The notes: generated from the sequence alone by a model not told the origin. A DNA stretch of 64,000 bases from a bacterium (GCA_021777565.1 JAJYDJ010000003.1:65001-129000); one strand, 5' to 3'. Counted from the first letter of the stretch, positions 10,582 to 63,599 are shown. Numbers and translations: made by a program.

Positions 10582-10582
10582 T

Positions 10583-23652: not shown

Positions 23653-23654
23653 TT

Positions 23655-29988: not shown

Positions 29989-30036
29989 TTCTCTCTTCAT
30001 TTGACTAATCAATACGTCTGAACTAGAGTAAAAGTA

Positions 30037-31317
30037 ATGGGGCAGTTAATCCAAAATTTTCAAGATCTTGCAATAACTCCTGAAAGAAAAGCCGTTCTGG
30101 AAGTTATTGAAGCAGGACTCCAAGCAATTCAACCTAAAAAAATTCTTCAAGATAATTTTATCAAAAACAATTCACTCCTGAGTATAAAAGGAAAACAATT
30201 TGATCTCAGTTCCTACAAAAGAGTTTTCCTTATTGGATTTGGTAAGGGATCTGCCGGCATCGCGCAAGACATTGAAGATATTCTGGGGGATACCCTCACT
30301 GATGGGTATGTTATTGATAACGTAGCACAGCAATTTAAAAAAATACATTTTACCCTTGGCACTCACCCACTGCCTTCTCAACAAAATATCGACTTCACAA
30401 AGCAGGTCTTAGCCAGTATTCATGATCTCAATGAAGACGATCTAGTACTCGTTGTGGTGTGTGGTGGTGGATCAGCGATGTTCGAATCCCCACATATAGC
30501 GACCCTTGATGAGTTGGATCGTATCTCACAGGCACTTCTTAAAAGTGGTGCTGATATTGAAGAAATCAATGTTATTCGCAAACATCTTTCCCAAGTAAAA
30601 GGAGGCGATCTTGCCTATCATCTATACCCTGGGACCGTCGTCTCGCTCATTTTTTCTGACGTGCCAGGAAGTGATCTGTCAGTCATCGCATCGGGACCGA
30701 CTGTCCAAGACAAAACAACATTGGAAGAAGCACATGAGATTATTACCAAGTATCATATCAATCAAGCTGTTCCAAATATAGAGAATATGATGCAACGACT
30801 TCATTCAGACGAAAAATACTTTATCCATGTTCATAATATTCTTATTGCCAGTAATCTGGATGCACTCAAGGCGATGCAGGAGAAAGCAGCAGAGTTGCAT
30901 ATCACTACATCAATTTTTTCAGACAAAGTTCAAGGTGATGCGAAGACAATAGGGAAAGAGCTCCTTGGAAATGCGCCGGAACATAGCATGATGCTTGCAG
31001 GTGGAGAGACAACGGTGGTTGTGAAGGGCAGTGGCAAAGGAGGGCGTAATCAGACGGTTGTGGTAGCATCTCTCCCCTATCTTAAAAACAATGAGGTGAT
31101 TGCATCCATCGGTTCTGATGGACTCGACTATTATTATTTTGCGGGAGCAATTGGTGACATGAAGACCAGTGAAAAGGCCAAACAAAAAGGCCTTGACCCA
31201 CAAGTTTTTCTGGACAATGATAATACGTATGAGTTTCTTTCACAAATTGGAGACGGTATATATACTGGGAAACTTGAATCAAATGTTTCAGACTTAATGG
31301 TAGTCTATAAACCATAA
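30037..31317 (+). CDS. glycerate kinase (MOFRL family, glycerate 2-kinase)
   Basis: The N-terminus is typical of the GckA/TtuD family. LAGGETTVVVKGSGKGGRNQ is the MOFRL signature. Confidence 0.8.
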   Translation: MGQLIQNFQDLAITPERKAVLEVIEAGLQAIQPKKILQDNFIKNNSLLSIKGKQFDLSSYKRVFLIGFGKGSAGIAQDIEDILGDTLTDGYVIDNVAQQFKKIHFTLGTHPLPSQQNIDFTKQVLASIHDLNEDDLVLVVVCGGGSAMFESPHIATLDELDRISQALLKSGADIEEINVIRKHLSQVKGGDLAYHLYPGTVVSLIFSDVPGSDLSVIASGPTVQDKTTLEEAHEIITKYHINQAVPNIENMMQRLHSDEKYFIHVHNILIASNLDALKAMQEKAAELHITTSIFSDKVQGDAKTIGKELLGNAPEHSMMLAGGETTVVVKGSGKGGRNQTVVVASLPYLKNNEVIASIGSDGLDYYYFAGAIGDMKTSEKAKQKGLDPQVFLDNDNTYEFLSQIGDGIYTGKLESNVSDLMVVYKP

Positions 31318-31322
31318 CGAAT

Positions 31323-32186
31323 ATGTCTATAGATCTCACAGACGAACAAATTATTGATTTGGAAGAAAAAGCCAATACGATCAGAGAGCTAATTATTAGC
31401 TCATTGGTTGAAGCTGGTTCAGGACATTCCGCAGGCCCGTTGGGCATGGCAGATATTTTCACGGCACTGTATTTTCATATTCTTAATCATGATCCCCAAA
31501 ACCCTGAGTGGGAGGATAGAGATAGGCTTATTTTATCCAATGGACACATTTGTCCTGTCAGATATGCCGCTATGGCACTCGCAGGATATTTCCCTGTTGA
31601 GGAATTAAAAACCTTACGAAAAATAAATTCACGTCTGCAAGGACATCCACATCGAACGGCACTTCCAGGACTTGAGACGACATCAGGGCCACTAGGAGAG
31701 GGTCTATCGCAGGCAATTGGTGTCGCGTTGGCGGCACGACTCGATCAAAAAAGATACACCGTGTACTGTCTTACTTCAGATGGAGAACATCAGGAAGGCA
31801 ATACCTGGGAAGCTGCAATGTTTGCAGGTAAACACAAACTCCACAATCTTATTCAAGTCATGGATCGCAATCATATCCAGATCGATGGCTTTACTGAACA
31901 AGTCATGCCCCTAGAGCCTCTTAGGGATAAATATCGTGCATTTGGCTGGGAAGTTATTGAAGTAGATGGGAATAATATTCATGCATTCGTGGATGCAGTC
32001 AATCAAGCCAAGGCAACACAAGAAAAACCAGTCTTAATACTTGCTCACACTATCCCAGGAGAAGGAGTGGATTTTATGGAAAATGATTTTCACTGGCATG
32101 GAACACCACCTAACCCAGAACAGGCCAAGAAAGCACTTGCTGAACTGCGTACCCTTGGGGGTAAGATTGTCAGTGAGCAAGAATAA
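31323..32186 (+). CDS. transketolase, N-terminal subunit (split Tkt)
   Basis: SGHSAGPLGMADIFTALYF and LSNGH are the TPP-binding transketolase N-terminal motifs. Confidence 0.9.
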   Translation: MSIDLTDEQIIDLEEKANTIRELIISSLVEAGSGHSAGPLGMADIFTALYFHILNHDPQNPEWEDRDRLILSNGHICPVRYAAMALAGYFPVEELKTLRKINSRLQGHPHRTALPGLETTSGPLGEGLSQAIGVALAARLDQKRYTVYCLTSDGEHQEGNTWEAAMFAGKHKLHNLIQVMDRNHIQIDGFTEQVMPLEPLRDKYRAFGWEVIEVDGNNIHAFVDAVNQAKATQEKPVLILAHTIPGEGVDFMENDFHWHGTPPNPEQAKKALAELRTLGGKIVSEQE

Positions 32187-32189
32187 CAT

Positions 32190-33179
32190 ATGTTAAATCC
32201 GAAATTACATCTCAATCCTAAACTGTTTGATACAGACGTTGAGCAAAAAGCGACACGCGATGGGTATGGAGAGGCTTTAGTGGCCCTCGGCGAGGCTGAC
32301 AAACGGGTAGTGGCACTTACTGCAGATCTTGCTGAATCAACCAGAACTGAAGCATTCGCGACAAAATTCCCAGAGAGATTTTTTGAGTGTGGCGTGGCAG
32401 AGCAGAATATGGCTGCGATTGCGGCAGGACTTGCAGTCACAGGCAAAATACCATTTATTTCCTCCTACGCTACCTTCTCTCCTGGCAAAAATTTAGAGAC
32501 TATCCGAACAACTATCATCTATAACAATGCCAACGTGAAGATCGCCGGGCATCACAGTGGCATCATGACAGGGCCCGATGGGGCTACCCATCAAGCCACG
32601 GAAGATATTGCCATCATGAGAGCGCTCCCTGATGTGCAGGTAGTTGTCCCGTGTGATGCAATTGAGGCAAAGAAAGCAACTATGGCTGCAGGCACGTACG
32701 TAGGGCCTGTGTATCTACGTTTTACTCGTGACAAGACACCGCTGATAACCACCGAAGATACGCCATTTGATGGGACTGTGCAACAATTTTGGGTTACTGA
32801 TCATCCGGTTGTGACAATTTTTGCCACAGGATACATGCTTATGTATGCACTTCTTGCAGCTAAAGAACTCGAAGGAGAAGGAATCTCTGTCATCGTTGCC
32901 AATGTAGCCAGTATTAAACCTCTGGATGAAGCCACAGTTCTCTCACTTGTACAAGAGTCAGGGGCAGCAGTCACTGTGGAAGACCATCAAGTTATGGGAG
33001 GCTTAGGAGGACTGATCGCAGAAGTATGTGCGAAAAATCATCCTGTCCCAATGGAATTTATTGGACTGCAAAATACGTTTGGTGAGTCAGGGAAACCTGC
33101 AGAGCTTATCGAAAAATATGGCATGGGCAAAGAAAGTATTAAACAAGCGGTAAAAAAAGTGATTGAAAGAAAAAAATAA
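32190..33179 (+). CDS. transketolase, C-terminal subunit
   Basis: It contains the pyrimidine-binding domain and the C-terminal domain. It immediately follows the N-terminal subunit gene. Confidence 0.9.
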   Translation: MLNPKLHLNPKLFDTDVEQKATRDGYGEALVALGEADKRVVALTADLAESTRTEAFATKFPERFFECGVAEQNMAAIAAGLAVTGKIPFISSYATFSPGKNLETIRTTIIYNNANVKIAGHHSGIMTGPDGATHQATEDIAIMRALPDVQVVVPCDAIEAKKATMAAGTYVGPVYLRFTRDKTPLITTEDTPFDGTVQQFWVTDHPVVTIFATGYMLMYALLAAKELEGEGISVIVANVASIKPLDEATVLSLVQESGAAVTVEDHQVMGGLGGLIAEVCAKNHPVPMEFIGLQNTFGESGKPAELIEKYGMGKESIKQAVKKVIERKK

Positions 33180-33180
33180 T

Positions 33181-34833
33181 ATGGATACCCAACTTATAGA
33201 AAAACTCAAAGCAATCATCTCAGGAGAAGTCATGAGTGATAACGAGACACTGCAAACATATTCTCATGACGCATCGCTTTTCGAGGTCATGCCACAAGTG
33301 GTTGTGGCTCCAAAAGACGCCAAAGATGTACAAGCGCTCGTGAGTTTTGTTACTGAACAAAAGAAAAAGTATCCCAGTCTTTCACTCACTGGCAGATCAG
33401 CCGGCACCGATATGGGAGGAGGATCTATCAATGATGGCATTATCGTTTCATTTACCCAGCATTTCAATCACACCCCAACTGTAAAAGGTACTGTCGCCAC
33501 AACTGAGCCAGGTGTTTTTTACCGTGACTTTGAGAAAGAGACCCTCAAACATAATTTAATTTTCCCCTCCTACCCTGCTAGTCGAGAAATTTGTGCAATG
33601 GGTGGCATTGTGAATAACAACTCAGGTGGAGAGAAGTCTCTGCAGTACGGAAAAACGGAAAAGTATGTCAAGCGAGTGAAAGTTGTCCTCTCTGACGGAA
33701 AGATTTATGAATTTAAACCACTCACAGAGACTGAACTGAAGAAGAAAATGACGCAGAAAGATTTTGAAGGTAAATTATATAAAGAATTATATGCTCTTAT
33801 TTCAGAGAATTATGACCTTCTGCAAAAAGCAAAACCTAAAGTTACCAAAAACTCAGCAGGATACTATTTGTGGAATGTTTGGGACAAAGATAAGAAAATT
33901 TTCGACCTGACAAAATTATGGGTTGGTGCACAGGGCACGCTGGGGATGCTTCTTGAAGCTGATATTGAACTTGTCCCCGTGCATAAACATCACGAAATGG
34001 AAGTCATATTTCTGCATGACATGAGCCATCTCAAGCAGATTGTGGATACCATCCTGCCTCTGCAACCAGAAAGTTTCGAGAGTTATGATGACAATACCTT
34101 AAAACTGGCCTTGCGATACTTTCCGGAGTTTATCCATCAACTAGGCATCGGTGGGATGATAGAGGCAGGATTTGCCTTCATGCCAGCATTTATGGATATG
34201 CTTCTGGGACGACTTCCCAAGCTTATCTTACAGGTGGATTTTGCCGGGGATGATCCAGACGAACTGAAGCAAAAGATTGCAACACTTCGTGAGAAATTAA
34301 GACCGCTACACCCACAGACAACTATTGCGGTTGATGAACAGGAGAAAAAATATTGGCTCGTACGCCGTGAGAGCTTTAATTTATTGAGAAAGAAAGTACG
34401 CAATCTTCATACCGCACCATTTATCGATGATATTGTGGTTGATTGGCATGATTTTGCAACAGTATTTACCGAAGTAAGTAACATTCTGAAAAAACACAAA
34501 GAGTTTATCTTTGCCGGACAGGGTCATGTGGGAGATGGAAATTTTCACATTATTCCACTCGTAGATATCGCCAACCCAAAAGTCAGGCAGTTAATTCCAG
34601 AAATTTCCAAACAAGTATATAGCCTGGTCATCGCTCACCATGGGTCCATCACCGGTGAGCATAATGATGGGCTTATCCGTACACCATATCTAGAGGAGAT
34701 GTATGGCAAAGATATTGTCGAGCTTTTTAGAAAAACAAAAGAGATTTTTGATCCAGAAGATATCTTTAATCCCCGAAAGAAAATTGGTGGGACAATAGAA
34801 TATGCGATGAGCCATATCCGTGAGAATTGGTGA
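33181..34833 (+). CDS. FAD-linked oxidase (GlcD / D-lactate dehydrogenase-like)
   Basis: The FAD-binding PCMH domain LTGRSAGTDMGGGS is present, with the typical C-terminal domain. The start is set at M7 (33181), just after the upstream stop. Confidence 0.8.
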   Translation: MDTQLIEKLKAIISGEVMSDNETLQTYSHDASLFEVMPQVVVAPKDAKDVQALVSFVTEQKKKYPSLSLTGRSAGTDMGGGSINDGIIVSFTQHFNHTPTVKGTVATTEPGVFYRDFEKETLKHNLIFPSYPASREICAMGGIVNNNSGGEKSLQYGKTEKYVKRVKVVLSDGKIYEFKPLTETELKKKMTQKDFEGKLYKELYALISENYDLLQKAKPKVTKNSAGYYLWNVWDKDKKIFDLTKLWVGAQGTLGMLLEADIELVPVHKHHEMEVIFLHDMSHLKQIVDTILPLQPESFESYDDNTLKLALRYFPEFIHQLGIGGMIEAGFAFMPAFMDMLLGRLPKLILQVDFAGDDPDELKQKIATLREKLRPLHPQTTIAVDEQEKKYWLVRRESFNLLRKKVRNLHTAPFIDDIVVDWHDFATVFTEVSNILKKHKEFIFAGQGHVGDGNFHIIPLVDIANPKVRQLIPEISKQVYSLVIAHHGSITGEHNDGLIRTPYLEEMYGKDIVELFRKTKEIFDPEDIFNPRKKIGGTIEYAMSHIRENW

Positions 34834-34863: not shown

Positions 34864-35898
34864 ATGAAAAAAGTTTTCTTGTTTTTAATTACTTTTGTGG
34901 TGCTTATTGTCCTCTCCCCAAAGATCGTCTCAGCTCATGAGGCATATGTACTCACCCAACAAGAGTTTCAGCAAGGCAGTAGTGTAATCACAACCAACCC
35001 ACTTGCTCCACTCTTAACACCAGAGTACTTTCAAATCTCATCATTTATTACGTTCTGTGTTGTGCTCGCCTATCTCTTAGTAATTCTTTGGTCTCTTACT
35101 CCCTGGGCAAAAGTTGCTGACGGCATAATTAAGAAAGCACATGGGATAGGCCCACTCATCATACGACTTGCAGTTAGCAGCTCATTTTTCTTTGCAGCAC
35201 AGGCCAACTGCTTTCTAGGACCAGAGCTTTCTCTTGCGAGCATTCCGGGCGGCCAGATTCTCCGGTTCTTAGCATACGTTATAGCCATTATGGTATTCCT
35301 TGGATTTTTCACAGAGATTGTTGCGGCCCTCGCGCTAGGAATTTTCTTGTATAGTAGCTATTTTTTTGGCGCCTATATGATGACCTATGCGAATTATTTT
35401 GGAGAATTTCTCATTTTAATGCTCTTCGGATCACGCTTTGTGTCCCTTGACCAGCTTTTGTTTGGGAACAAACTACTTTTCACGAAACTTAAAAAATATA
35501 CGAGCTTAGAAACGCCAATCGTACGAATCCTGTACGGGTTTGGACTCATTTATGCTGGATATAACATCAAATTTGTTCATCAAATTCTCACCATATGGGT
35601 CTATAACCAATACCATTTGCAAGACTTCTTCCACGCATCAGCAGGGTTTATCGCAGCTGGAGCAGGTCTATCAGAGATTCTCATTGGCTTTTTTATCATG
35701 ATCGGGTTTGCGATGCGTTTTACTATTCTTATTTCACTCGTATTCATCACACTTTCGCTCATCTATTTCCATGAGCTTCTTTGGCCACATATTATTCTCT
35801 ACGGTATTTCATTCTCACTGCTTATCAACTCGGGAGATTTCCTGACAATAGATCACTACATCAAGCCACTCATGAGGAAACTTATTGGTAAGAAATAG
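34864..35898 (+). CDS. hypothetical polytopic membrane protein
   Basis: There are about 8 predicted TM helices. No catalytic motif was recognised. Confidence 0.5.
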   Translation: MKKVFLFLITFVVLIVLSPKIVSAHEAYVLTQQEFQQGSSVITTNPLAPLLTPEYFQISSFITFCVVLAYLLVILWSLTPWAKVADGIIKKAHGIGPLIIRLAVSSSFFFAAQANCFLGPELSLASIPGGQILRFLAYVIAIMVFLGFFTEIVAALALGIFLYSSYFFGAYMMTYANYFGEFLILMLFGSRFVSLDQLLFGNKLLFTKLKKYTSLETPIVRILYGFGLIYAGYNIKFVHQILTIWVYNQYHLQDFFHASAGFIAAGAGLSEILIGFFIMIGFAMRFTILISLVFITLSLIYFHELLWPHIILYGISFSLLINSGDFLTIDHYIKPLMRKLIGKK

Positions 35899-52545: not shown

Positions 52546-54117
52546 ATGGATCCATTGCAAACAATGCCAGGGCAAACTACTCCATCAGTTCCACCAATTG
52601 ATTCTCTCAACCCTGTCCCACCAGCACCTGCAGATATGAATCCCCAGACTGCTCCGACTGTGCCTCCAACAAATCCTGCTGCGGCAACACCTCTCACCTC
52701 AACAGAGATTCCTTTATCCACACTGCCTCAAACATTTGGGGCTCAGTCGCCTTTCGCAAACAATCCAGCTGGTACGCCACCACCTGCCATGCCATCCCAT
52801 CCTATGCTTGAAGAAGAACATTCTGGGATGCCAATTTTCATTAAGATTGCAGCGGTTCTGTTGGTCGTCTTTGCTGTAATAGCACTGGTTTTATTCCTCT
52901 TTTCGATGAGAAAAGCAAGCAGCGATACACAAAAGGTAACACTTACCTACTGGGGGCTGTGGGAAGACAAGAGCGTGATGGCAAATGTATTAAATGATTT
53001 TACCAAACAACACCCGAATATCACTGTCGACTATATACAACAAGACCCAAAACAATATACAGAGAGACTTATTACCAGAATTCAGGGAGGCAATGGTCCT
53101 GATGTATTTAGATTCCACAACACATGGCTGCCATTTCTCCAGCCACTCATGACGCCTCTGAGTAAAGAAACTATTTCGCCGCAGGATTTCAATACCAATT
53201 ATTATCCGGTTATTCGTTCTGACTTGAGTAAAAATGGAGCCATTTATGGAGTTCCTCTTGAGATCGACACCTTGGCGATGTTTGTCAACACTGACCTTCT
53301 CAAGAAAGCCGGTGTATCAGTCCCTACGACCTGGAATGATTTTGTCACTGATGCGCGCACCCTTACTGTCGTAGATGCTAATGGCAAAATCCAAACGGCA
53401 GGGGCTGCTATAGGGACCTATGACAATGTCACCCACGCGCCAGACATTCTTTCCATGCTTTTTGTACAAAGTGGCGTTAACCCAATCAACTTCTCTCAAA
53501 ATGCACAGAATGCCGGAGACGCACTTTCTTTCTATACGTCATTTGCTCTTGGAAAGACTGCGGTCTGGGATAGTTCGCAAGAGCAGGCATGGAGTATGTT
53601 CGCCAAAGGTAAGGTTGCTATTTATTTCGGATACTCATGGGACGTGTTCCAAATTAAAGCAGTTAACCCCACCTTGCCATTTGCAGTATATCCAGTCCCA
53701 CACTTACCGGGTAGCAAAGCAACCATTGCGAGTTATTGGGCAGAAGGCATTTCAAACAAAAGTACTCATCAACAAGAAGCACAATTACTTTTGGCATATC
53801 TCAGTAAGAAAGAGACACTGCAAAAGTTGTACACGGAAGAGTCAAAGGTTCGTCTTTTTGGGGAGCCATATCCACGAATTGATTTAGCAAGTACAGTGAA
53901 GGACAATCCTTATATTGCTCCTTTCCTCGCTGCTGCACCAGATGCAGTATCTTCCTACTTCGTTGGCAACACCTATGACTCGGCTGTGAACATTCCATTG
54001 GATAATTACCTCGGAGATGCAGTGAGATCAGTGCTCAGTAACACCTCAGCTCAGACAGCCATTACGACCCTCTCACAAGGGACTGCCCAAGTCCTTTCAA
54101 GATATGGCATTAAGTAG
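52546..54117 (+). CDS. ABC transporter extracellular solute-binding protein (family 1) with Pro-rich N-terminal extension and TM anchor
   Basis: About 100 aa of Pro/Thr-rich sequence is followed by a TM helix, then KVTLTYWGLWED... in an SBP_bac_1-like fold. The start is taken at ATG 52546. Confidence 0.7.
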   Translation: MDPLQTMPGQTTPSVPPIDSLNPVPPAPADMNPQTAPTVPPTNPAAATPLTSTEIPLSTLPQTFGAQSPFANNPAGTPPPAMPSHPMLEEEHSGMPIFIKIAAVLLVVFAVIALVLFLFSMRKASSDTQKVTLTYWGLWEDKSVMANVLNDFTKQHPNITVDYIQQDPKQYTERLITRIQGGNGPDVFRFHNTWLPFLQPLMTPLSKETISPQDFNTNYYPVIRSDLSKNGAIYGVPLEIDTLAMFVNTDLLKKAGVSVPTTWNDFVTDARTLTVVDANGKIQTAGAAIGTYDNVTHAPDILSMLFVQSGVNPINFSQNAQNAGDALSFYTSFALGKTAVWDSSQEQAWSMFAKGKVAIYFGYSWDVFQIKAVNPTLPFAVYPVPHLPGSKATIASYWAEGISNKSTHQQEAQLLLAYLSKKETLQKLYTEESKVRLFGEPYPRIDLASTVKDNPYIAPFLAAAPDAVSSYFVGNTYDSAVNIPLDNYLGDAVRSVLSNTSAQTAITTLSQGTAQVLSRYGIK

Positions 54118-54982
54118 TCTTGAGTCTTCCATCCTTGCAACAGTAGCCTATGCAGATGTGTTTTCATTTCCACTATCTGAGGCTGAGCTCTGGTACTATT
54201 TCTATCCAGTCCAAGCCTGCAGGCTGAATAAAACACTTTTCCGCCAGTCTCTCACTCATTTGATCGAAAGAAAATATCTACGCCAAGAATCTGGATACAT
54301 CACGTTCTATAATCAGACTAAATCGCTGGTCAATCGAGAGAAATCAGAAAAATATACGCAAGCAAAAGTGTCTTTTTCGAAATTTTATGCATCCATTCTT
54401 TTTTGCATCCCCTCCATTTTATTCATTGGTATCTCTGGATCTGTGGCTGCACATAATGCAGTGCGAGATGATGATATTGATTTCATTATTATTTGTGAAC
54501 AAGGGACGATTTGGGCGACACGTTTCCTAGTATATTTTGTACTCAAATTACTCAACTCAAAGAGAAAAAGAAACGAAGACAATCCAAACAACAAAATTTG
54601 CACAAATTTTTTTATCACTAATCGATCACTTTCTATGTCCAAAAATAGACGAAATATTTACACAGCTCATGAAATAGCTAATATACTCCCCCTATTTGAT
54701 CGCAATAATACCTATCAGCAATTTTGGGCTAACAATGCATGGGTACACGAATTCCTTCCTCATGTAAAAAATGTCGTCATAGAAACCGACCGGAGACGAA
54801 ACGCTACAACACGTGCCCTCTTACGTCTTCTTAACCCAATTGTGAAATACCCTCAGATTTGGTACATGCATCCACACCTTACGAACGAAACGATAACTGA
54901 TGATATGCTAGCGTTTCATCCTCGTGACGCAATGTCTGATACATTGAAAGCCTTCAACAAGATACTCACCCAATTGCATTGA
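54104..54982 (+). CDS. nucleotidyltransferase-fold protein (Pol-beta superfamily candidate)
   Basis: GISGSVAAHNAVRDDDIDFII matches the GS...D.D minimal NTase motif. Confidence 0.4.
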   Translation: MALSSLESSILATVAYADVFSFPLSEAELWYYFYPVQACRLNKTLFRQSLTHLIERKYLRQESGYITFYNQTKSLVNREKSEKYTQAKVSFSKFYASILFCIPSILFIGISGSVAAHNAVRDDDIDFIIICEQGTIWATRFLVYFVLKLLNSKRKRNEDNPNNKICTNFFITNRSLSMSKNRRNIYTAHEIANILPLFDRNNTYQQFWANNAWVHEFLPHVKNVVIETDRRRNATTRALLRLLNPIVKYPQIWYMHPHLTNETITDDMLAFHPRDAMSDTLKAFNKILTQLH

Positions 54983-55168
54983 CTGCAGACTGTATTGTGA
55001 CATAGACCACATATATTGTGGTCGGCAAAACAACAACAATTATTCTATTTAGGTTGATATGACAGCACAAACCCACAATTACTAGAGGTTATTGACAAAT
55101 CCTGATAAGTTGTCTAACATGCGTTAAGTAACTTCCCAGACCTAGTGTGTTGGGAATTTATTTTTTTT

Positions 55169-55639
55169 ATGCAACCTAAGAAAATTTATGTAACAAAAGA
55201 AGGACTCGCAGACCTGCAAAAGGAATACGATGACTTAACTAAGAAAAAGCGCCCAGAACTTCTGGAAGCTCTTTCAAGTGCTCGTGCAGAAGGCGATCTC
55301 TCTGAGAACGCTGAGTACCAAGCTGCTAAGCAGGACCTCGCATTCATTGATGGTCGCATTGATGAACTCGAAGAGATGCTCAAGCAGGCTGAAATTATTG
55401 TAGAAGACAAGAAGAGTGGCAACAAAGTTGTAGAGCTTGGTTCTGAGGTAACAGTAAAAATTGGTGCAAAAGAGCATGTGTACAAACTCGTTGGGGAATG
55501 GGAAGCAGCTCCTGCAGAAAAAAAGATTTCACATGAATCTCCTCTGGGGAAGGCTCTCCTTGGCAAAGTAGTTGGCGATACTATCGAAGTAGATGCGCCA
55601 GCAGGAAAAGTGGCATACACTATCGTTGCTATTGCATAA
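55169..55639 (+). CDS. greA: transcription elongation factor GreA
   Basis: GDLSENAEYQAAKQ is the acidic coiled-coil tip. The C-terminal FKBP-like domain is present. The start is set at MQPKK. Confidence 0.9.
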   Translation: MQPKKIYVTKEGLADLQKEYDDLTKKKRPELLEALSSARAEGDLSENAEYQAAKQDLAFIDGRIDELEEMLKQAEIIVEDKKSGNKVVELGSEVTVKIGAKEHVYKLVGEWEAAPAEKKISHESPLGKALLGKVVGDTIEVDAPAGKVAYTIVAIA

Positions 55640-55668: not shown

Positions 55669-57411
55669 ATGCAGTCACCAACCCTTCTCAAAAATCTCAA
55701 TGATTTGAAGATAACGCCAAATCTTACTGAGTACGTATCTCAAAGCCAACCGCAATGGGACAGTCTCGCGAAAGACATCCCATCCTTCTCTGAGGGGATA
55801 AAACATATTACCTATCACTGTCTAGACTTTCACCTGATGCAAAGCACGAAGGATAAGGAGGCACTGCTTTTCTGGAATAAAGAAGATATGAAGGAAAGCT
55901 ATACGTATGCCGATCTCGCAACACTCTCAAACAAATTTGCACACGTGCTATCCACGCAAGAAGTAGTGAAAGGCGATAGAGTATGTATTTTTCTTCCAAC
56001 GATTCCAGAGCGTCTCGTGACCTTCCTTGGGACACTCAGAACAGGTGCTATCGTACTCCCACTTTTTGCCGCGTTTCAAGAGATGGCACTTCTTGACAGG
56101 CTGAAAGATAGTGAAGCGAAAGTCGTTGTCACAACACATGAGTTATATCCTCGCATCCACAAAATCATGCACAATCTCCCACATCTCAAGAAAATTATTA
56201 TTATCCAGAGAGGCTCTTTTGAGATGCCAACTGGGGATCAGATTGTATCCTACAACGAATATATGGCAGAGGCGCCAGATGTCTATATCTCTCCCGAGAT
56301 TTTACCCACTGATCCGGCATTTATGCTCTATACGTCCGGGACCACTGGCAAGCCAAAAGGTATTATACACACACACAAAGATGTGATCGGGGCAGCGGTG
56401 ACAAGTAAGTATGTTCTTGACCTGCATGAGGATGATATCTACTGGTGCACTGCGGACCTTGGATGGGTCACAGGAGTTGTGTACGGAGTTATTGGGCCCC
56501 TCACACTGGGTGTGACGACTGTGGGCTACGAAGGGAGATTCTCTGCAACCAATTGGTATAGTGTCCTGGAGAAAAGTAATGTCAGTGTCTGGTATACCGC
56601 ACCAACTGCTATTCGCATGCTTATGGGGTCAGAGACCACTCCAAGCGACTATCACTTCCCTGCACTACGTCTTCTGGCAAGTGTTGGTGAGCCACTTAAT
56701 CCTGAAGGCATTTGGTGGGGGCTTGAGAAGTTTGGCCTCCCTTTTCACGATACATGGTGGCAAACAGAGTTAGGGTGTATCTGTATCACCAATTTCGCCT
56801 CTATGGACATCAAACCAGGCTCCATGGGCAAACCTTTCCCAGGCATCAAAGCAGCCATTCTCGATGATGACGGAGAAGTACTTCCCACAGGACAGGAGGG
56901 CATGCTTGCTCTGGATAAGACAACTATTCAGCCACTTATGGATGCTATTTGGAAAAATTCTGAGAAGTACCAGTCTTACTTCCATAACAATTGGTATCTG
57001 TCCGGGGACAGAGCCTATCAAGATGAAGACGGATATTTCTGGTTTGTGGGACGAGCGGACGATATTATTAACACGAGCGGAGAACGCGTTGGGCCTTTTG
57101 AAGTTGAGAGCGCGCTGGTTGCACATCCTGATGTCGTAGAAGCAGGTGTTATCGGATATCCTGATGAACTGCGTGGAGAGATTGTGATGGCATGTGTTGT
57201 TCTTAAGCCAAATATCACCCCATCAGATGAGTTGATAAAAGACATTGAAATATTTGTGAAGCAACATCTTTCAGGGTATGCATACCCAAGAAAAATAGTA
57301 TTTGTTGATAAACTTCCAAAAACACGCAGTGGCAAAATCATGAGACGAGTACTCAAGGCTCGTGTACTAGGACTTCCTGAGGGAGATACTTCTACGCTTG
57401 AGGAGTATTAA
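55669..57411 (+). CDS. acetyl-CoA synthetase-like AMP-forming acyl-CoA ligase
   Basis: The AMP-binding motif is YTSGTTGKPKG. The Acs-typical motif DTWWQTE is present. The C-terminal PKTRSGKIMRR is present. Confidence 0.85.
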   Translation: MQSPTLLKNLNDLKITPNLTEYVSQSQPQWDSLAKDIPSFSEGIKHITYHCLDFHLMQSTKDKEALLFWNKEDMKESYTYADLATLSNKFAHVLSTQEVVKGDRVCIFLPTIPERLVTFLGTLRTGAIVLPLFAAFQEMALLDRLKDSEAKVVVTTHELYPRIHKIMHNLPHLKKIIIIQRGSFEMPTGDQIVSYNEYMAEAPDVYISPEILPTDPAFMLYTSGTTGKPKGIIHTHKDVIGAAVTSKYVLDLHEDDIYWCTADLGWVTGVVYGVIGPLTLGVTTVGYEGRFSATNWYSVLEKSNVSVWYTAPTAIRMLMGSETTPSDYHFPALRLLASVGEPLNPEGIWWGLEKFGLPFHDTWWQTELGCICITNFASMDIKPGSMGKPFPGIKAAILDDDGEVLPTGQEGMLALDKTTIQPLMDAIWKNSEKYQSYFHNNWYLSGDRAYQDEDGYFWFVGRADDIINTSGERVGPFEVESALVAHPDVVEAGVIGYPDELRGEIVMACVVLKPNITPSDELIKDIEIFVKQHLSGYAYPRKIVFVDKLPKTRSGKIMRRVLKARVLGLPEGDTSTLEEY

Positions 57412-57437
57412 GGCCATCTGGTACACTAGGTACTGGT

Positions 57438-58601
57438 ATGGCACGTAAAAAAATTACTGAGTTTCGCGCAAAGTCTCTTTTGATCCCCAATTATCAGGGC
57501 ATACGAATCACTCCTGACAGCGATATTTCTAAGGAAGTCGCCAAACTCCAGGATACCCAGACGTATGTCGTGAAGATCGATCACGGAGTGAAAAAACGCA
57601 TGAAACAAGGGCTTATTCTTCTAGATATAAAAAGGGATGCAGTACCAGATGCCATTGAGACATTGAAAGCAAAAGGATATACGAACTTTCTCATTGAACC
57701 ATTCCTTCGCTATAACCCCACAGAAGAAAGATATCTCAGTTTGCAGCGAGTGAGAGACGGGATCATGATCCTTTATGCGCCACAAGGTGGTATCGAGATA
57801 GAGGATCGCCCAGAAAGTCTTATCGCAGAGACTATCCATGCTCCCCAAGAGCTCGCAGCATTCGCAGAGAAGACTGGCCTTACACCCTCACTTTTACAAA
57901 CTATCTATGAAGAATTTGAAGAAAATTACTATGCATTTTTTGAGATAAACCCACTAGTCCTTCATGATGGCAAGTTCCTTCCATTAGATATCGCCTGTGA
58001 AGTCGATGATGCGGCAGAACTTCTCGTCCATCACCGATGGAGTGCTGATGATTTTCCTATCATGACAGCAAAGACTGAAGAGGAAGAAAATATTGATATC
58101 CTTAAAACTAAAAGTGCTGCATCATTTTCATTTGTGCCACTTAATTTAAATGGTAGTATCTTTATGCTCCTCTCTGGAGGAGGAGTAAGTATTGTCCTTG
58201 CAGATGAAGTATATAATTTAGGATATGGAAAAGAATTGGCAAATTATGGAGAATACAGTGGAAATCCCAATGCAGAAGAGACATATTTATATACAAAAAA
58301 TGTATTACAACTTTTACTCAAATCAACCGCTACAAAAAAAGTTTTACTTATTGGCGGCGGGGTAGCAAATTTCACTGATATCGCCAAAACATTTACCGGA
58401 GTCATTCATGCGCTCAGTGAAGTAGCTGATCAGATGCAACAACAACATGTTACTGTATTTGTTCGTCGAGGAGGACCCAATCAGGCAGAAGGGCTTGCCA
58501 AGATGCATAATTTTCTACAAGAAAATAATTTACTTGGCGCCGTGTGTGGACCAGACACACCGCTACCAGATATCGTTGCCCAAATGGTCAAAACAATATG
58601 A
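57438..58601 (+). CDS. ATP-citrate lyase small subunit-like protein (ATP-grasp, AclB/SucC-like)
   Basis: The protein is 387 aa. The ATP-grasp N-terminus resembles succinyl-CoA synthetase beta / ACL. It is translationally coupled (ATGA) to the next gene. Confidence 0.55.
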   Translation: MARKKITEFRAKSLLIPNYQGIRITPDSDISKEVAKLQDTQTYVVKIDHGVKKRMKQGLILLDIKRDAVPDAIETLKAKGYTNFLIEPFLRYNPTEERYLSLQRVRDGIMILYAPQGGIEIEDRPESLIAETIHAPQELAAFAEKTGLTPSLLQTIYEEFEENYYAFFEINPLVLHDGKFLPLDIACEVDDAAELLVHHRWSADDFPIMTAKTEEEENIDILKTKSAASFSFVPLNLNGSIFMLLSGGGVSIVLADEVYNLGYGKELANYGEYSGNPNAEETYLYTKNVLQLLLKSTATKKVLLIGGGVANFTDIAKTFTGVIHALSEVADQMQQQHVTVFVRRGGPNQAEGLAKMHNFLQENNLLGAVCGPDTPLPDIVAQMVKTI

Positions 58602-60382
58602 TCGATATACAAACATTACGAAATACTCCTCACACGATTATTGCAATTGGGACGTACCCTGCGATTATCCAAGCCATGATTGATTTCGATTTTCTCTCAG
58701 GCAAAGATAAACCAAGTATTGCTCTTATCCTTGCAGAAGGACGTAACCACGAGCGGTACTTCTGGGGCAAAGAAGAAATTCTTATTCCTGTCGTTCATGA
58801 AGTCCATAGTATCCCAGATTCACTGCAAAAACAGATAACATTCTTTGTCAATTTTTCCTCAGGCAGACGAACCAAAGACACAACTCTTGAGATTCTTGAT
58901 GCACTTCCCGGGCTTATCGGCGGTGCACTTTTTGCAGAGAAAGTACCTGAGAAACATAGTCTTCGTATGTATGCACATGCCAAGAAGTTAGGAAAGTTCA
59001 TTGTCGGACCCGCAAGTATTGGGTTGTTACTCCCAGGGAGTGTAAAACTTGGAGCCATTGGAGGTACTGATGCACGGCAGCTTATCAGTGCTGACGTATT
59101 CCAGAGAGGATCTGTTGCTGTCCTTTCAGCATCAGGGGGCATGACAAATGAGCTTATTAATGCCGTCACCAGAAGTAACAAGCGCATCTCATTTTCTCTT
59201 GCCTTTGGTGGAGAAAGATTCCCCGTGACGACTCCAACCGAAGCGTTCTTGGCAGCAGAAAAAGATCTAGAGACCAAAACCATCATTTATTTTGGTGAAC
59301 TTGGCGGAAGCGATGAATACGATCTTGCACAACTCATGCAGTCTGGTAGTATTACCAAACCAATCCTCTGCTACATCGCAGGCAGCGTTGCTGAGATGTT
59401 TGATACTCCTCCACAGTTTGGTCACGCAAAGGCACTCGCTCAGTCCAAAGACGAAACCGCACGTGGGAAAAGAGACATGCTTGAAAAAGCCGGCGCACAG
59501 GTTGCAGAGTCTTTTACCGAGTTTCTTTCAATGATCAATGCGCTCCCTGTCGATCAATTTGAAGAAAAATCATATGCGCATGCCCTGCAACTTTTTGCGT
59601 CCCGACATGAGGCATTGATTACTTCTTCTATATCCGGCGATGCCAACGGCGTCACCGGATTGCTGCATGAAGATTTACTTTCTTTCGTGCAAAAGAGATC
59701 ATTTGCCGGAATTGTTTGTTCACTTTTCTTAGGAAGAAATGAGGTCTCACCTGAACTAGAAGAGTTTGTCGATTTTGTCCTGAGATTATTGGTTGATCAT
59801 GGACCAAATGTAAGTGGTGCTATGAATACGATCGTTACGGCTCGTGCAGGACGTGATATTGTTTCGTCTCTTGTTTCAGGACTGCTGACTATTGGTCCTC
59901 GTTTTGGTGGCGCTATCAATCAGGCTGCAGAAAACCTTTTATTAGGCGTCACCACCGGACAAGACGCCGCAGATTTTGTAGAATCATTTGCATCCACCAG
60001 ACAATACATTGCTGGCATTGGTCATAAAAAATATCGTAGTGATCTTCCTGATCCACGGGTAAAGGCACTGAAAGCATTTGGCGAGAAGTTGGAACAAAAA
60101 CGTTTCCTGCAATACGCACTCGCGATTGAAAAAATTACAACCCAAAAGAAAGGGAATCTTATTCTCAATGTTGATGGCGCAATTGCTGCAATACTCCTTG
60201 ATATCCTTTCTGAAAAAGAGCATTATAGTGATCAAGAATTACAAACTCTCGTTGAAAGTGAATTCTTCAATGCCTTCTTTATTCTTTCCCGATCGGTCGG
60301 ATTTTTGGCACATTTCCTTGATCAAAAGCGCATTGATGAGGGCATATTTAGGCTTCCTGATGATTTGATTCTTCACATCTAA
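58598..60382 (+). CDS. ATP-citrate lyase large subunit-like protein (CoA-binding/ligase domains + citrate-synthase-like C-terminal domain)
   Basis: The N-terminus has a CoA-binding Rossmann fold. A phosphohistidine-loop-like FGHAKAL is present. C-terminal GHKKYRSDLPDPRV resembles the citrate synthase GHRVYK..DPR motif. The size, 594 aa from the 58598 start (612 aa for the full ORF), matches AclA. Confidence 0.55.
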   Translation: MIDIQTLRNTPHTIIAIGTYPAIIQAMIDFDFLSGKDKPSIALILAEGRNHERYFWGKEEILIPVVHEVHSIPDSLQKQITFFVNFSSGRRTKDTTLEILDALPGLIGGALFAEKVPEKHSLRMYAHAKKLGKFIVGPASIGLLLPGSVKLGAIGGTDARQLISADVFQRGSVAVLSASGGMTNELINAVTRSNKRISFSLAFGGERFPVTTPTEAFLAAEKDLETKTIIYFGELGGSDEYDLAQLMQSGSITKPILCYIAGSVAEMFDTPPQFGHAKALAQSKDETARGKRDMLEKAGAQVAESFTEFLSMINALPVDQFEEKSYAHALQLFASRHEALITSSISGDANGVTGLLHEDLLSFVQKRSFAGIVCSLFLGRNEVSPELEEFVDFVLRLLVDHGPNVSGAMNTIVTARAGRDIVSSLVSGLLTIGPRFGGAINQAAENLLLGVTTGQDAADFVESFASTRQYIAGIGHKKYRSDLPDPRVKALKAFGEKLEQKRFLQYALAIEKITTQKKGNLILNVDGAIAAILLDILSEKEHYSDQELQTLVESEFFNAFFILSRSVGFLAHFLDQKRIDEGIFRLPDDLILHI

Positions 60383-60383
60383 T

Positions 60384-60605
60384 TTATTTCTCAGCGAAAT
60401 TCACTTGATGTTTTCTTTGTAAAAGGTCGCGGGCTATAGATTGTAATTCCTTCACCATTTGGATTTGTACCTCACCTCGTACTTTTTCAATTTGAAACGT
60501 ATTGGCCGCGTAAAAAATGTGAAGTAATACTTCAACATCTTTCCCTTTGGCGATACGGTAGGTCGCTTTTTCAAACAAAAATGTATCAATATATGTTACC
60601 TTCAT
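60384..60605 (-). CDS. hypothetical protein
   Basis: 73-aa ORF with no recognisable motif. Confidence 0.3.
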   Translation of the reverse strand: MKVTYIDTFLFEKATYRIAKGKDVEVLLHIFYAANTFQIEKVRGEVQIQMVKELQSIARDLLQRKHQVNFAEK

Positions 60606-60758: not shown

Positions 60759-60897
60759 TTGACGTTTCTGACAAGCACGATATAATACAAGTACCTATGA
60801 CATACGTTTTCTCTGCAAAAAAGTCAAACAAGAAGAACCTCTAACGAGGGCTTGTTTGCATGAATAAAAACAACGCCCTCCCCAGGAGGGTTTTTTT
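60759..60897 (+). promoter_or_regulatory. promoter + Lys-codon-rich leader peptide + terminator/antiterminator: candidate translation-coupled attenuator for lysK
   Basis: TTGACG is at 60759-64, followed by a 16-nt spacer and TATAAT at 60781-86. The mini-ORF 60797-60844 encodes MTYVFSAKKSNKKNL, with 4 Lys codons in 15. GAGGGC at 60846-51 is complementary to GCCCTC at 60875-80. That GCCCTC overlaps the 5' arm of the terminator hairpin (CCCTCC at 60876-81 pairing with GGAGGG at 60885-90), which is followed by a T7 tract. Confidence 0.4.
60875..60897 (+). terminator. intrinsic terminator (GC stem + T7 tract) upstream of lysK
   Basis: CCCTCC-cca-GGAGGG is followed by TTTTTTT at 60891-97. It is not usable in the reverse orientation because the opposite strand has no U-tract after the stem. 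Confidence 0.55.
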
Positions 60898-60926
60898 GTA
60901 GGGTAGAAAAGACGTATAATAGATAT

Positions 60927-62447
60927 ATGAAATACTGGTCAGACACATTAGCTGAAAAATTAAAAGAGAGGCACTTACCTCTGGAGGGTGTCGATGATAT
61001 GAAAACACCATCTGGTCGTGTGCACATGGGGGCGCTTCGAGGGCTGGTTATCCACGATCTCGTATATAAATCACTCCAACAAGCAGACGTACCTACGCGA
61101 TATACCTATGTATATGACGACCATGATCCTATGGATGGATTCCCAGTTTACCTTCCAGAAGAGTTTAAACAATACATGGGTATGCCACTCTACCAAATTC
61201 CTTCTCCTGGTCCAGGAGCAGAAAATTTTGCCCAATATTTTGCCAACGAATTTACAGAAGTTTTTAACAAGATCGGATGTCATCCAGAAATTATTTGGGC
61301 ATCCAAACTCTATGAAGACGGCAAAATGAATGATCTGATCCGTGTCGCTCTCGACCATGCTGATGATATACGCGAAATCTATGAAAAAATGTATAAAAAA
61401 GAGATTGCTAAACCATGGTATCCATACCAGCCGTATTGTCCACAATGTAAAAAAGTTGCGACAACTACAGTTACTGATTGGGATGGCGAACAAATTACAT
61501 TTACCTGTGAAGTGAATAAAGTAAACTGGACACAAGGGTGTGGATACACAGGGAAAATGTCGCCGTTTAGTCATGGTACCGTCGTTGGAAAATTACCATG
61601 GAAAATTGAATGGCCGGCAGTCTGGAAAGTTATTGGAGTAACTGTTGAGGGAGCGGGGAAAGACCATATGTCAGCTGGTGGTTCACACGACGTCGCCAAA
61701 CAAATTTCTGAGAAAGTCTTCCACTACGAAACACCATACCCTATTGCTTATGAGTGGTTTAATATTGGGGGCAAAAAAATGTCCAGTTCTAAAGGAGTTG
61801 GGACATCAGCTGCCGAAATGTTAGAGCTCCTCCCACCAGAATTGGTACGTTTCTTGATGGTACGAACTGACTACAATAAAGCAATTAATTTTGATCCATT
61901 TGGGGATACAATTCCAGCACTTTTTGATGAATATCAACGAGCTGCTCAGGCATATACTGACAAAAGCGATGAACTTCTTGCCCGTATGTTTGAGTTGTCA
62001 CAAATTAATGGCGTACATATGCCACCAAAACTCAGATTCTCAGTCATCGCTCAGCTGGTACAAATGCCAAATATGAAAGACTACATTGCATCAGAGGGTC
62101 TGGAATCTTGGGCGCACTATGCACGCAATTGGGTTGAAAAATATGCGCCAGAAGATGAAAAATTTAGTATCCAAGAAAGTCTGCCAGAAGCAGCAAAAAA
62201 TCTCACAACAACACAAAAAGAATTGCTTGCACGTATTGCAAAAGAACTGGATACAGACTGGGAAGCAGAAAAATTACAATTTGAAATCTATGAATGGGGC
62301 AAAGCGATGGGGATGTCAGGGAAAGAAGTATTTAGTGCAATCTATACAGCACTTATCGGCAAAGATCACGGGCCGAAAGCAGCATGGCTTATTCTTTCAC
62401 TTGAAAAAAACTTTGTACAAAAAAGATTTGAAGAAGCCGCGAAATAA
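60927..62447 (+). CDS. lysK: lysine--tRNA ligase, class I
   Basis: The N-terminal TPSGRVHMG is the class I LysRS HIGH-region variant. KMSSSKG is the KMSKS motif. The protein is 506 aa. TATAAT at 60913-18 lies only 8 nt before the ATG, so the mRNA may be leaderless. Confidence 0.9.
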   Translation: MKYWSDTLAEKLKERHLPLEGVDDMKTPSGRVHMGALRGLVIHDLVYKSLQQADVPTRYTYVYDDHDPMDGFPVYLPEEFKQYMGMPLYQIPSPGPGAENFAQYFANEFTEVFNKIGCHPEIIWASKLYEDGKMNDLIRVALDHADDIREIYEKMYKKEIAKPWYPYQPYCPQCKKVATTTVTDWDGEQITFTCEVNKVNWTQGCGYTGKMSPFSHGTVVGKLPWKIEWPAVWKVIGVTVEGAGKDHMSAGGSHDVAKQISEKVFHYETPYPIAYEWFNIGGKKMSSSKGVGTSAAEMLELLPPELVRFLMVRTDYNKAINFDPFGDTIPALFDEYQRAAQAYTDKSDELLARMFELSQINGVHMPPKLRFSVIAQLVQMPNMKDYIASEGLESWAHYARNWVEKYAPEDEKFSIQESLPEAAKNLTTTQKELLARIAKELDTDWEAEKLQFEIYEWGKAMGMSGKEVFSAIYTALIGKDHGPKAAWLILSLEKNFVQKRFEEAAK

Positions 62448-62450
62448 GAT

Positions 62451-63599
62451 TTATCTATTTATTGATATCCCGCGCTGTTGCAGAAACTCCTCATGAGCTG
62501 TAACAAAATCTTTTCCATAAAGCATTGCTGCAGTCATGTGGACTCTCCAAGCATCGATGTCATCCATCGTCTGCAGTACTTCCAATGTTGTTCTGTATAC
62601 TTCCTGTGATATAGCAATATGTCTTCCTACCACATCTGATCCCCTGTAATTATCTGAGGCAAGGAGATGATAATAGACATCTCCTATAAGTCCTTGCCAC
62701 AATTCTAAATCAGTAAGGGTGTCTTCTCGAGGCCGCATAGTAAATCTATCATGAAAGGAAAATGGAAATTCTCGACCTCCCACCAGATCTCTATCTCTTT
62801 CTACCGAGACGCTATATCCCTCTGCTGCGAGCATGTCACCAATAGGTTCATGTGCCATCCCGCGACGAACCACAACGGCATAAATATTTGGATTCTCTCC
62901 AACAAGAGTGGTAAGACGTCGTACTAAGAGAGTATCTCTATCGAACACATTCTCGCGTGCCAGATCAAGACTACTGCGATACAGCCCGAAAGCTTCATCA
63001 AAATTTCCTGTAGCGAGATTTTGATATGACATTTTTTCTTGCCAACCAAAAAGATTTGAGACAGTTCTCTTTTCTCTTCTTCCAGCTACAAACGGATCCT
63101 CTTCCTCAACTTCCCCCCTATTACTTGCGATAATTTCATCAGTATTCCCTTCAACAACTAAAAGCAATCTCCCACCATGCATTTCGTATAAATTCGTAAG
63201 AATTGCTATTGCCTGTGCTATTTCTGGATTTGTATGCACTGTATAGGCTCGTAGAGCGTTTCTATAATTAAGCGTATTTCCTCTTGCATCCTCTGGTGTC
63301 ACATGTTGTGTTGCACAAACGAATGCCTGCAGTGGTGTAAGTGGAGTTTCCCTGTGTAGTCCTTGTGCGCTCAAACGGGTTACCTCATCGGCGACTTCTT
63401 GTGTCATGTCTGCCATCTCTAGAACAGCAGCAACAGCCATAGGAGCTCCCTCTGGCGTACGCATATCCTCGCTTTCTCTCAAGCGTCGTGCTACTTGATC
63501 TCTCAGCTGAGTGATCCCCTCAGAATGATACGTTGGACCAAGGTCATGCACCATCGAGGAAATATCAAAGAATGGCCCTTGTTGTTCAGAATTCGACAT
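62451..63599 (-). CDS. hypothetical protein
   Basis: 382-aa ORF with no motif recognised. It is somewhat GC-richer than its surroundings. Confidence 0.45.
   Translation of the reverse strand: MSNSEQQGPFFDISSMVHDLGPTYHSEGITQLRDQVARRLRESEDMRTPEGAPMAVAAVLEMADMTQEVADEVTRLSAQGLHRETPLTPLQAFVCATQHVTPEDARGNTLNYRNALRAYTVHTNPEIAQAIAILTNLYEMHGGRLLLVVEGNTDEIIASNRGEVEEEDPFVAGRREKRTVSNLFGWQEKMSYQNLATGNFDEAFGLYRSSLDLARENVFDRDTLLVRRLTTLVGENPNIYAVVVRRGMAHEPIGDMLAAEGYSVSVERDRDLVGGREFPFSFHDRFTMRPREDTLTDLELWQGLIGDVYYHLLASDNYRGSDVVGRHIAISQEVYRTTLEVLQTMDDIDAWRVHMTAAMLYGKDFVTAHEEFLQQRGISINR

Follow-up and report, generated by a model that had tools for sequence, protein, structure and literature searches.

Why would a bacterium with a genome of only about 1 Mb carry an ATP-citrate lyase (ACL), and in which direction would it run the enzyme? 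The question is raised by a 64,000-nucleotide stretch of DNA (GCA_021777565.1 JAJYDJ010000003.1:65001-129000, hereafter the window), in which a gene for an acetyl-CoA synthetase, acs, is followed on the same strand by two further genes, here called aclB and aclA (Table 1). An initial annotation, made from the sequence alone, had proposed that this pair encodes the two subunits of an ACL, with a paralogue derived from succinyl-CoA synthetase (SCS) as its fallback. The host is a Levybacteria-like member of the candidate phyla radiation (CPR) with a genome of about 1 Mb; identical proteins are encoded on a 953,194-bp ENA contig (ERZ27236897 k141_2336031) and in the NCBI assembly GCA_027424575.1, and the closest database proteins are 57-67% identical, some of them named Candidatus Levybacteria. 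The identity of aclB and aclA as a heteromeric two-subunit ATP-citrate lyase (EC 2.3.3.8) is well supported by sequence comparison and structure prediction. I consider it moderately probable that the enzyme is a canonical ACL that cleaves scavenged citrate to supply the cell with acetyl-CoA and oxaloacetate.

Identity of the aclBA gene pair

Open reading frame (ORF) calling reproduced exactly the coordinates and sizes that had first been given for the three genes. The maximal ORF of aclA extends from a GTG at 58544 to 60382 and would encode 612 aa, but the ATG at 58598, which yields 594 aa, agrees with the N-termini of homologues (consensus MIDI...) and with the public gene call. Bases 58598-58601 read ATGA, with the TGA stop codon of aclB overlapping the ATG start codon of aclA, as in the translational coupling noted earlier. 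The sizes of the products, 387 and 594 aa, indeed resemble those of an AclB/AclA pair, which measure 398 and 608 aa in Chlorobium limicola.

The assignment to ACL follows from ACL-specific Pfam domains on both subunits, full-length matches to ACLY, conserved residues and an ACLY-like predicted fold. In AclB, the citrate-binding domain Citrate_bind (PF16114) is found at 4.2e-54 (183 bits, cutoff 26.8), and the ACL-type ATP-grasp domain Citrate_synth_N (PF24948) at 4.1e-29 (102 bits, cutoff 83). The best matches of AclB in the PDB (phmmer) are M. concilii ACLY-A (1.2e-59) and human ACLY (1.9e-59); Chlorobium ACL follows at 2.8e-32, a chain of citryl-CoA synthetase (CCS) at 3.6e-13 and the best SCS beta chain at 3.8e-8. 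The four citrate-binding residues of the human enzyme, G309, N346, T348 and R379, are all identical in the AclB alignment, and their equivalents are kept in 76-77 of 78 AclB sequences from CPR bacteria.

In AclA, Pfam places Ligase_CoA at residues 176-299 and Citrate_synt at residues 358-585 (2e-24). Residues 14-591 align with human ACLY (7.5e-105) and with M. concilii ACLY-B (2.5e-104) in phmmer searches of the PDB, where Chlorobium AclA scores 5.6e-62, SCS alpha about 1e-24, and the citryl-CoA synthetase/lyase entries 6hxq and 6hxp 6.5e-23 and 1.3e-15. The citrate-synthase-like C-terminal segment recognised earlier, GHKKYRSDLPDPRV, is present in the translation, and the reading of this part of the protein as a citrate-synthase-like module is borne out by the Pfam domain and by the human citryl-CoA lyase (CCL) module 6hxk, which matches it at 5.7e-49 by sequence and at a TMt of about 0.8 by fold. 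The AlphaFold2 model of AclA has a pLDDT of 81.5; the PDB structures that Foldseek ranks highest for it are ACLY alpha chains, aligned across about 600 columns, and its N-terminal half matches ACLY at a TMt of 0.87.

Residue equivalences were counted along HMMER alignments to human ACLY. The motif FGHAKAL, suspected from the start to be a phosphohistidine loop, holds His276, which aligns with the phosphohistidine H760 of the human enzyme, while Lys278 takes the place of the canonical glycine of GHAGA. The residues of the CCL active site likewise correspond (H401 to human H900, H476 to H975, D526 to D1026, R565 to R1065 and R585 to R1085); the codon of D526 lies at 60173-60175, and its LNVDG context was checked by translation. 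A check of the histidine and lyase residues had been called for in the initial annotation: H276, K278 and the catalytic residues of the lyase are invariant in 24 of 24 aligned AclA relatives.

Could the pair be an SCS after all, or a separate citryl-CoA synthetase and lyase? A distant homology to these enzymes is certainly visible in the NCBIfam models, with 106.4 bits for SCS alpha (NF004230), 57.7 bits for SCS beta (TIGR01016) and about 67 bits for the CCL models. However, the respective cutoffs are 336, 375.6 and 193-409, and the ACLY matches (1e-105 for AclA, 1e-59 for AclB) are far better than those to any CCS, CCL or SCS chain, which argues for ACL. I therefore reject SucCD, which scores far under the cutoffs and whose SucD is only about 290 aa long, against 594 aa and a fused CCL module here; the fallback of a SucCD-derived paralogue (about 1e-24 for SCS in the PDB) is dropped with it. 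CcsAB/Ccl of the Hydrogenobacter type is rejected as well, as the lyase forms part of the alpha chain here, just as in ACL, and CCS chains rank far below ACLY. Neither a placement among SucCD proteins nor a lack of the citrate-synthase fold in the predicted structure, either of which was to count against the ACL proposal, was found, and the likelihood that the pair is one of these other enzymes is close to negligible.

Among characterised enzymes, those of M. concilii (6hxi, 6znw) and human (6hxh, 6qfb) are the best matches of AclA both by sequence (1e-104 to 1e-105) and by fold, and they share with the window enzyme the domain order, the catalytic histidine, the citrate site and the Asp, His and Arg residues of the lyase. 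They differ from it in that identity is about 34%, in the GHAGA loop (GHAKA here), in an AclB that is about 35 residues shorter here, and in that the CPR sequences form a clade of their own; moreover, human ACLY is a single fused chain, whereas the window enzyme consists of two subunits. The C. limicola enzyme (6hxj) has the same chemistry and the same aclB-aclA gene pair, but it is more distant in sequence and serves a complete reductive tricarboxylic acid (rTCA) cycle in an autotroph, of which nothing is visible around the ACL of the window.

By homology to these solved enzymes, ATP bound in the ATP-grasp domain of AclB would phosphorylate His276 of AclA, and the phosphoryl group would pass to citrate in the citrate-binding domain of AclB to give citryl phosphate. 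CoA on the N-terminal domain of AclA would then attack this intermediate at the AclB/AclA interface and form citryl-CoA, which the C-terminal CCL module, with Asp526, His401 and His476, would split into acetyl-CoA and oxaloacetate.

Distribution, phylogeny and the phosphohistidine loop

The initial annotation had taken ACL to be foreign to fermenters with reduced genomes. This premise does not hold, as relatives of the enzyme are present in at least 192 Patescibacteria species of GTDB (one genome per species), related enzymes occur in DPANN archaea, and the presence of ACL in these groups has already been published. The species scan was queried with an alignment; a single-protein query gave no relatives. 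The best 80 of the 192 species (51-65% identity) bear Levyibacteriota, Woesebacteria, Magasanikbacteria, Saccharibacteria/Saccharimonadia or Patescibacteria group titles. Four ACL loci (L005, L006, L008, L011) and some 35 others are titled 'uncultured Gammaproteobacteria bacterium' and have a Levybacteria- or Patescibacteria-like synteny; such titles on CPR-type records look like a labelling artefact of bulk submission. Out of 1.84 billion representative proteins, matches to AclA at E<=1e-30 are confined to 146 clusters, a nearby one belonging to Dojkabacteria and a more distant one to a DPANN archaeon.

The phylogenetic placement that had been asked for was obtained from a neighbour-joining tree of AclA (61 sequences, 584 columns, 100 bootstraps, midpoint-rooted), in which the protein falls into a CPR clade inside the ACL family. 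All CPR sequences form this one clade, with 91% bootstrap support and a long stem (0.17), its subclades track the taxon labels, and the AclA of the window stands among the Levybacteria. The other half of the tree holds the human, M. concilii and DPANN sequences, the fused eukaryotic forms and the Chlorobium type. As the CPR sequences are monophyletic and their subclades follow the taxon labels, this midpoint-rooted distance tree suggests a long vertical inheritance of ACL within the CPR.

At the level of sequence, the clade is recognisable by a loop that reads FGHAKA, where the canonical form is FGHAGA. The lysine motif is found in 120 of 120 best database matches and in the nearest 50%-identity representatives, whereas representatives at 41% identity or less carry FGHAGA, and two other ACL representatives GHAWA or GHAAA. 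One sequence inside the CPR clade (P0124) retains GHAGA. Because 80 related loci were chosen partly by the pattern PQFGHAKA, a count of the lysine among them is circular; the 120 matches stem from an independent protein search.

The replaced glycine invites the thought that the FGHAKA clade acts on another acid or CoA ester, or is regulated differently, and that the name ACL misleads. The long stem that parts the CPR clade from all other ACLs, the contrast between lysine in the nearest 120 matches and glycine in the more distant representatives, and an identity of only about 34% to characterised ACLs would all fit such a change of function. I nevertheless regard it as very unlikely. The second position after the histidine varies in other ACLs too, as GHAWA and GHAAA show, and a member of the CPR clade does without the lysine; the catalytic residues of the lyase are invariant, and the intact citrate site, kept in nearly all CPR AclB sequences, makes a changed specificity improbable.

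Neighbourhood of aclBA and other features of the window

The acs product passes the NCBIfam equivalog model NF003313 for acetate-CoA ligase (745.5 bits, cutoff 729). It contains both the AMP-binding domain PF00501 (2e-78) and its C-terminal partner PF13193, and its translation includes the motifs DTWWQTE and PKTRSGKIMRR, the latter being the catalytic lysine motif of the C-terminal domain. The gene is thus what it had been taken for. Its link to ACL, however, is not general, as Acs adjoins aclBA only in this organism and in two other species: at L004, in the order Acs-27 nt-aclB, and at L023, downstream of aclA. At the latter locus (9806-11534) the Acs homologue is split into two overlapping ORFs of 137 and 448 aa, owing either to a frameshift or pseudogenisation or to a fault in the assembly.

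These comparisons are based on 1234 ORFs clustered from 84 loci, with about 8 kb on either side of aclBA. The two ACL genes are adjacent in 81 of the 84 loci, and in 15 related loci aclB is preceded, immediately or at a short distance, by greA. What stands between greA and aclB varies in Levybacteria: this slot holds Acs, or a pair of Tdh-like and Kbl-like genes, or nothing. The Tdh-Kbl-like pair occurs in L006, L007, L008, L012, L029 and L086, with gaps of -28 to 31 nt; the closest relative (P0002, 67% identity) has the order greA-tdh-kbl-aclB-aclA, and in L017 tdh-kbl stands immediately 3' of aclA. The best models for these two products, TIGR00692 (348 bits) and NF005394 (434 bits), both fall just under their equivalog cutoffs. 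Rarer neighbours are a gene resembling ADP-forming acyl-CoA synthetase (ACD) in L073, one resembling homocitrate synthase in L012, and GNAT acetyltransferases; the assignments of the Tdh, Kbl, ACD and homocitrate-synthase-like neighbours are at the level of the family. The variable neighbours, Acs, Tdh-Kbl-like, ACD-like, GNAT and homocitrate-synthase-like, are all enzymes of the acetyl-CoA node.

An archaeal-type phosphoenolpyruvate carboxylase (PEPC; TIGR02751, 484 bits, cutoff 146) is encoded three genes upstream in L052, L059, L062 and L065, four CPR-like genomes in which PEPC, dcd, an unknown gene, aclB and aclA form a tight run on one strand (e.g. L065 2268-3863). Other frequent neighbours are MurB, which follows aclBA in 37 loci, and EF-G or GreA, which precede it; they look like the synteny of the lineage rather than functional coupling. 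The 292-aa gene at 54104-54982, which has no Pfam match, is a conserved part of an SBP-X-greA block that stands ahead of aclBA in 14 loci. Two neighbours had to be discarded as candidates: an SDR-type gene beside a Kbl-like gene in L058, considered as a threonine dehydrogenase, has D-erythronate dehydrogenase as its best NCBIfam model, far under the cutoff, and an 856-aa neighbour in L041, suspected to be an aconitase, is a ribonucleotide reductase.

Enzymes that would make or use citrate were looked for as well. Regular-expression motifs for isocitrate dehydrogenase (IDH), aconitase, citrate synthase, malic enzyme, phosphoenolpyruvate carboxykinase, pyruvate:ferredoxin oxidoreductase and AckA, a crude check, gave no match in the 1234 ORFs of the 84 loci. 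Aconitase, IDH and citrate synthase are absent among the Pfam-annotated genes of the window, and neither the window, nor a 6-kb flank, nor 80 related loci showed a 2-oxoglutarate:ferredoxin oxidoreductase, a fumarate reductase, an aconitase or an IDH.

These last negatives bear on the suggestion that the genes signal a reductive TCA cycle, and with it autotrophic CO2 fixation, in the host. ACL is a textbook key enzyme of that cycle, and surveys based on KEGG place aclA and aclB under the Arnon-Buchanan cycle. However, the partner enzymes were not seen in any of the regions just named, the genome measures about 1 Mb, and the neighbours of aclBA are housekeeping and cell-wall genes. CPR bacteria are, moreover, generally regarded as non-autotrophic (PMC12577380). 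An autotrophic role is thus extremely unlikely.

Table 1. Features of the locus and of the remaining window, with positions counted from the first base of the window.
Feature	Position	Strand	Basis or context
Promoter-like site TTGACA-17-TAACAT upstream of greA	55092..55120	+	Consensus scan, 10/12 matches
greA, transcription elongation factor (156 aa as called)	55169..55639	+	Pfam GreA_GreB_N, GreA_GreB
acs, AMP-forming acetate-CoA ligase (580 aa)	55669..57411	+	NCBIfam, Pfam, motifs
aclB, ATP-citrate lyase beta (small) subunit (387 aa), ATP-grasp and citrate-binding domains	57438..58601	+	
aclA, ATP-citrate lyase alpha (large) subunit (594 aa)	58598..60382	+	CoA-binding/phosphohistidine (SCS-alpha-like) and citryl-CoA lyase modules
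Phosphohistidine loop FGHAKA of AclA	59417..59434	+	Translation; alignment to human FGHAGA
Citryl-CoA lyase (citrate-synthase-fold) module of AclA, residues ~358-594	59669..60379	+	Pfam Citrate_synt
73-aa ORF, convergent with aclA, no Pfam match	60384..60605	-	Called gene
Serine recombinase	411-1925	-	Block 1-27000
Type IV secretion system coupling protein	2554-5388		Block 1-27000
TrbL	16366-17646		Block 1-27000
VirB4-like ATPase	18414-20603		Block 1-27000
Methylase, NgoFVII-type restriction enzyme and Z1 protein	22540-26598		Block 1-27000
IMPDH/GMP-reductase-family protein (350 aa), glycerate kinase (DUF4147/MOFRL), split transketolase, FAD-linked oxidase	28936-34833		Central-metabolism cluster

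In the window, the genes from greA to aclA are closely packed, with gaps of 29 nt between greA and acs and of 26 nt between acs and aclB. The promoter-like site in front of greA could perhaps mark the start of a greA-acs-aclB-aclA transcription unit; no comparable site on the plus strand was found between greA and aclA, where matches of 9/12 occur inside genes only. The convergent 73-aa ORF, which is kept on three of three contigs bearing the identical AclA, is the end marker of the plus-strand unit. Scans for promoters and terminators did not define the bounds of an operon, as the counts of such sites were near those expected from shuffled sequence.

Just downstream of aclA, at 60927-62447, the window encodes a class I lysyl-tRNA synthetase (LysRS; TIGR00467, 366 bits, cutoff 148), while the corresponding region of the closest relative by AclA (L086, 10997-12481) encodes a class II enzyme (NF001756, 607 bits, cutoff 468); one class may have displaced the other between related Levybacteria. 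Directly before this lysS gene, at 60759-60900, a strong promoter-like site (TTGACG-16-TATAAT, 11/12) stands ahead of a leader some 110 nt long, which folds to -31.7 kcal/mol (z -3.06) and ends in a terminator-like hairpin with a U-run at 60875-60891. The leader has no Rfam match even at E<=1 and may be an attenuator or leader of an unclassified kind.

The first 27,000 nucleotides of the window are low in GC (0.33-0.39, against 0.40-0.46 beyond 28 kb) and begin at a tRNA-Glu(ctc) gene (347-421). Besides the genes listed in Table 1, this block holds Replic_Relax, ThyA, a sugar-modification cluster, TrbC and an M23 peptidase, and as a whole it resembles an integrative conjugative element, here residing in a CPR genome. 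In the central-metabolism cluster, the N and C halves of the transketolase are separate genes, and the FAD-linked oxidase (550 aa) resembles GlcD/D-lactate dehydrogenase. No Pfam match was found for the ORFs at 62451-63599 (382 aa) and 34864-35898 (344 aa), as for the 292-aa gene mentioned above.

Direction of the reaction and its meaning for CPR bacteria

In the reading that I favour, citrate would be scavenged from a host or from the surrounding community and cleaved, at the cost of one ATP, into acetyl-CoA and oxaloacetate, as in the eukaryotic cytosol, and the adjacent AMP-forming Acs would provide a parallel route from acetate into the same pool of acetyl-CoA. The direction of the reaction, the source of the citrate and the fate of the products are points that I infer. 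Cleavage is favoured, firstly, because no enzymes that consume citrate were seen in the window, the flank or the related loci, and because the setting resembles the eukaryotic cytosol in being free of a TCA cycle. Secondly, the ACL reaction is near equilibrium under standard conditions, and a normal cellular ATP/ADP ratio together with low oxaloacetate would push it towards cleavage. Thirdly, Acs and Tdh-Kbl can be interpreted as sources that feed a common pool of acetyl-CoA side by side. A study of deep groundwater reads the genes likewise, proposing that released citrate could be imported by those Patescibacteria and DPANN that possess ACL and be turned into acetyl-CoA and oxaloacetate (PMC13014828), which lends this direction further support.

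Several observations weigh against this reading. A citrate transporter was not identified near the aclBA genes, and the negative results for citrate synthase, aconitase and IDH cover, in this organism, the window and its flank out of a genome of 953 kb. An invariant change from glycine to lysine stands beside the catalytic histidine. Above all, Acs, Tdh-Kbl and PEPC, the enzymes encoded near aclBA, all make substrates of the reverse reaction, and the linked genes fit a sequential pathway towards citrate at least as well as they fit a set of parallel suppliers.

In the living cell, the same enzyme could therefore work backwards, as a citrate synthase that conserves ATP and turns acetyl-CoA, oxaloacetate, ADP and Pi into citrate, ATP and CoA. 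The acetyl-CoA would be provided by exchangeable modules, Acs here and Tdh-Kbl or ACD elsewhere, and the oxaloacetate by PEPC; the energy of the thioester would be recovered as ATP, or ACL would stand in for a missing citrate synthase. Each of the tightly linked metabolic genes makes a substrate for this reaction, which is freely reversible, and operons join sequential steps more often than parallel ones. A precedent may exist in Desulfobacter postgatei, in which ACL reportedly works in an oxidative cycle and makes ATP from acetyl-CoA and oxaloacetate; there, however, a complete citric acid cycle is said to consume the citrate, and no such cycle is evident here. The reverse direction would need oxaloacetate in stoichiometric amounts and a sink for citrate, and neither the window nor the 80 loci showed an aconitase, an IDH or a citrate lyase. 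It is also disfavoured by a normal ATP/ADP ratio and low oxaloacetate, and with an AMP-forming Acs the route from acetate would still come at a net cost of ATP. Finally, the linkage to PEPC is found in four loci only, with two unrelated genes in between, and the Tdh and Kbl matches lie under their equivalog cutoffs. On balance, I consider citrate formation by this enzyme rather unlikely.

The boldest form of this idea would be that the CPR have an ACL of their own, old, vertically inherited and marked by its lysine, which they run towards citrate. The step would be a substrate-level phosphorylation, supplied by PEPC and by acetyl-CoA modules that replace one another in the same slot of the operon. 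Such a scheme appears decidedly doubtful to me; if true, it would provide minimal cells with an energy-conserving sink for acetyl-CoA, or with their sole citrate synthase.

Cleavage of scavenged citrate, the favoured reading, is not a new idea, and neither is the presence of ACL in Patescibacteria, so that the present results are a confirmation and refinement rather than a discovery. A groundwater study found aclAB enriched in Saccharimonadia and gives frequencies per CPR class in its supplement, which lists, of the TCA genes, aclA and aclB only (PMC12577380). A preprint reports that CPR and DPANN sequences mis-annotated as SCS or citrate synthase group with citrate-cleaving enzymes (10.1101/2022.10.25.513756), and a further paper reports that ACLA/B of eukaryotes branch with DPANN (PMC11976288). 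The two groundwater studies and the preprint concern these very genes in organisms of this kind and record presence or absence only; the text consulted describes neither a monophyletic CPR clade, nor the GHAKA signature, nor the slot for Acs or Tdh-Kbl. Literature searches on ACL and Levybacteria, and on Levybacteria and isocitrate dehydrogenase, found no publication, and no paper turned up on how CPR ACL functions, on how its clade is structured, on the GHAKA loop or on the slot of changing content upstream of aclB. The structure of the CPR clade, the GHAKA loop and the variable slot are thus modest additions to what was known.

The CPR accounts for much of the diversity of bacteria, and the majority of its members lack a TCA cycle, so that the sources of their acetyl-CoA and C4 acids bear on how their dependence on hosts is to be understood. 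The conservation of an intact ACL suggests that citrate is among the metabolites exchanged, which parallels the eukaryotic cytosol. It also calls for caution in reading aclAB in metagenomes as a marker of autotrophy by the rTCA cycle. For biochemistry, the GHAKA loop and the swappable acetyl-CoA modules offer concrete handles on what this enzyme does in CPR cells.

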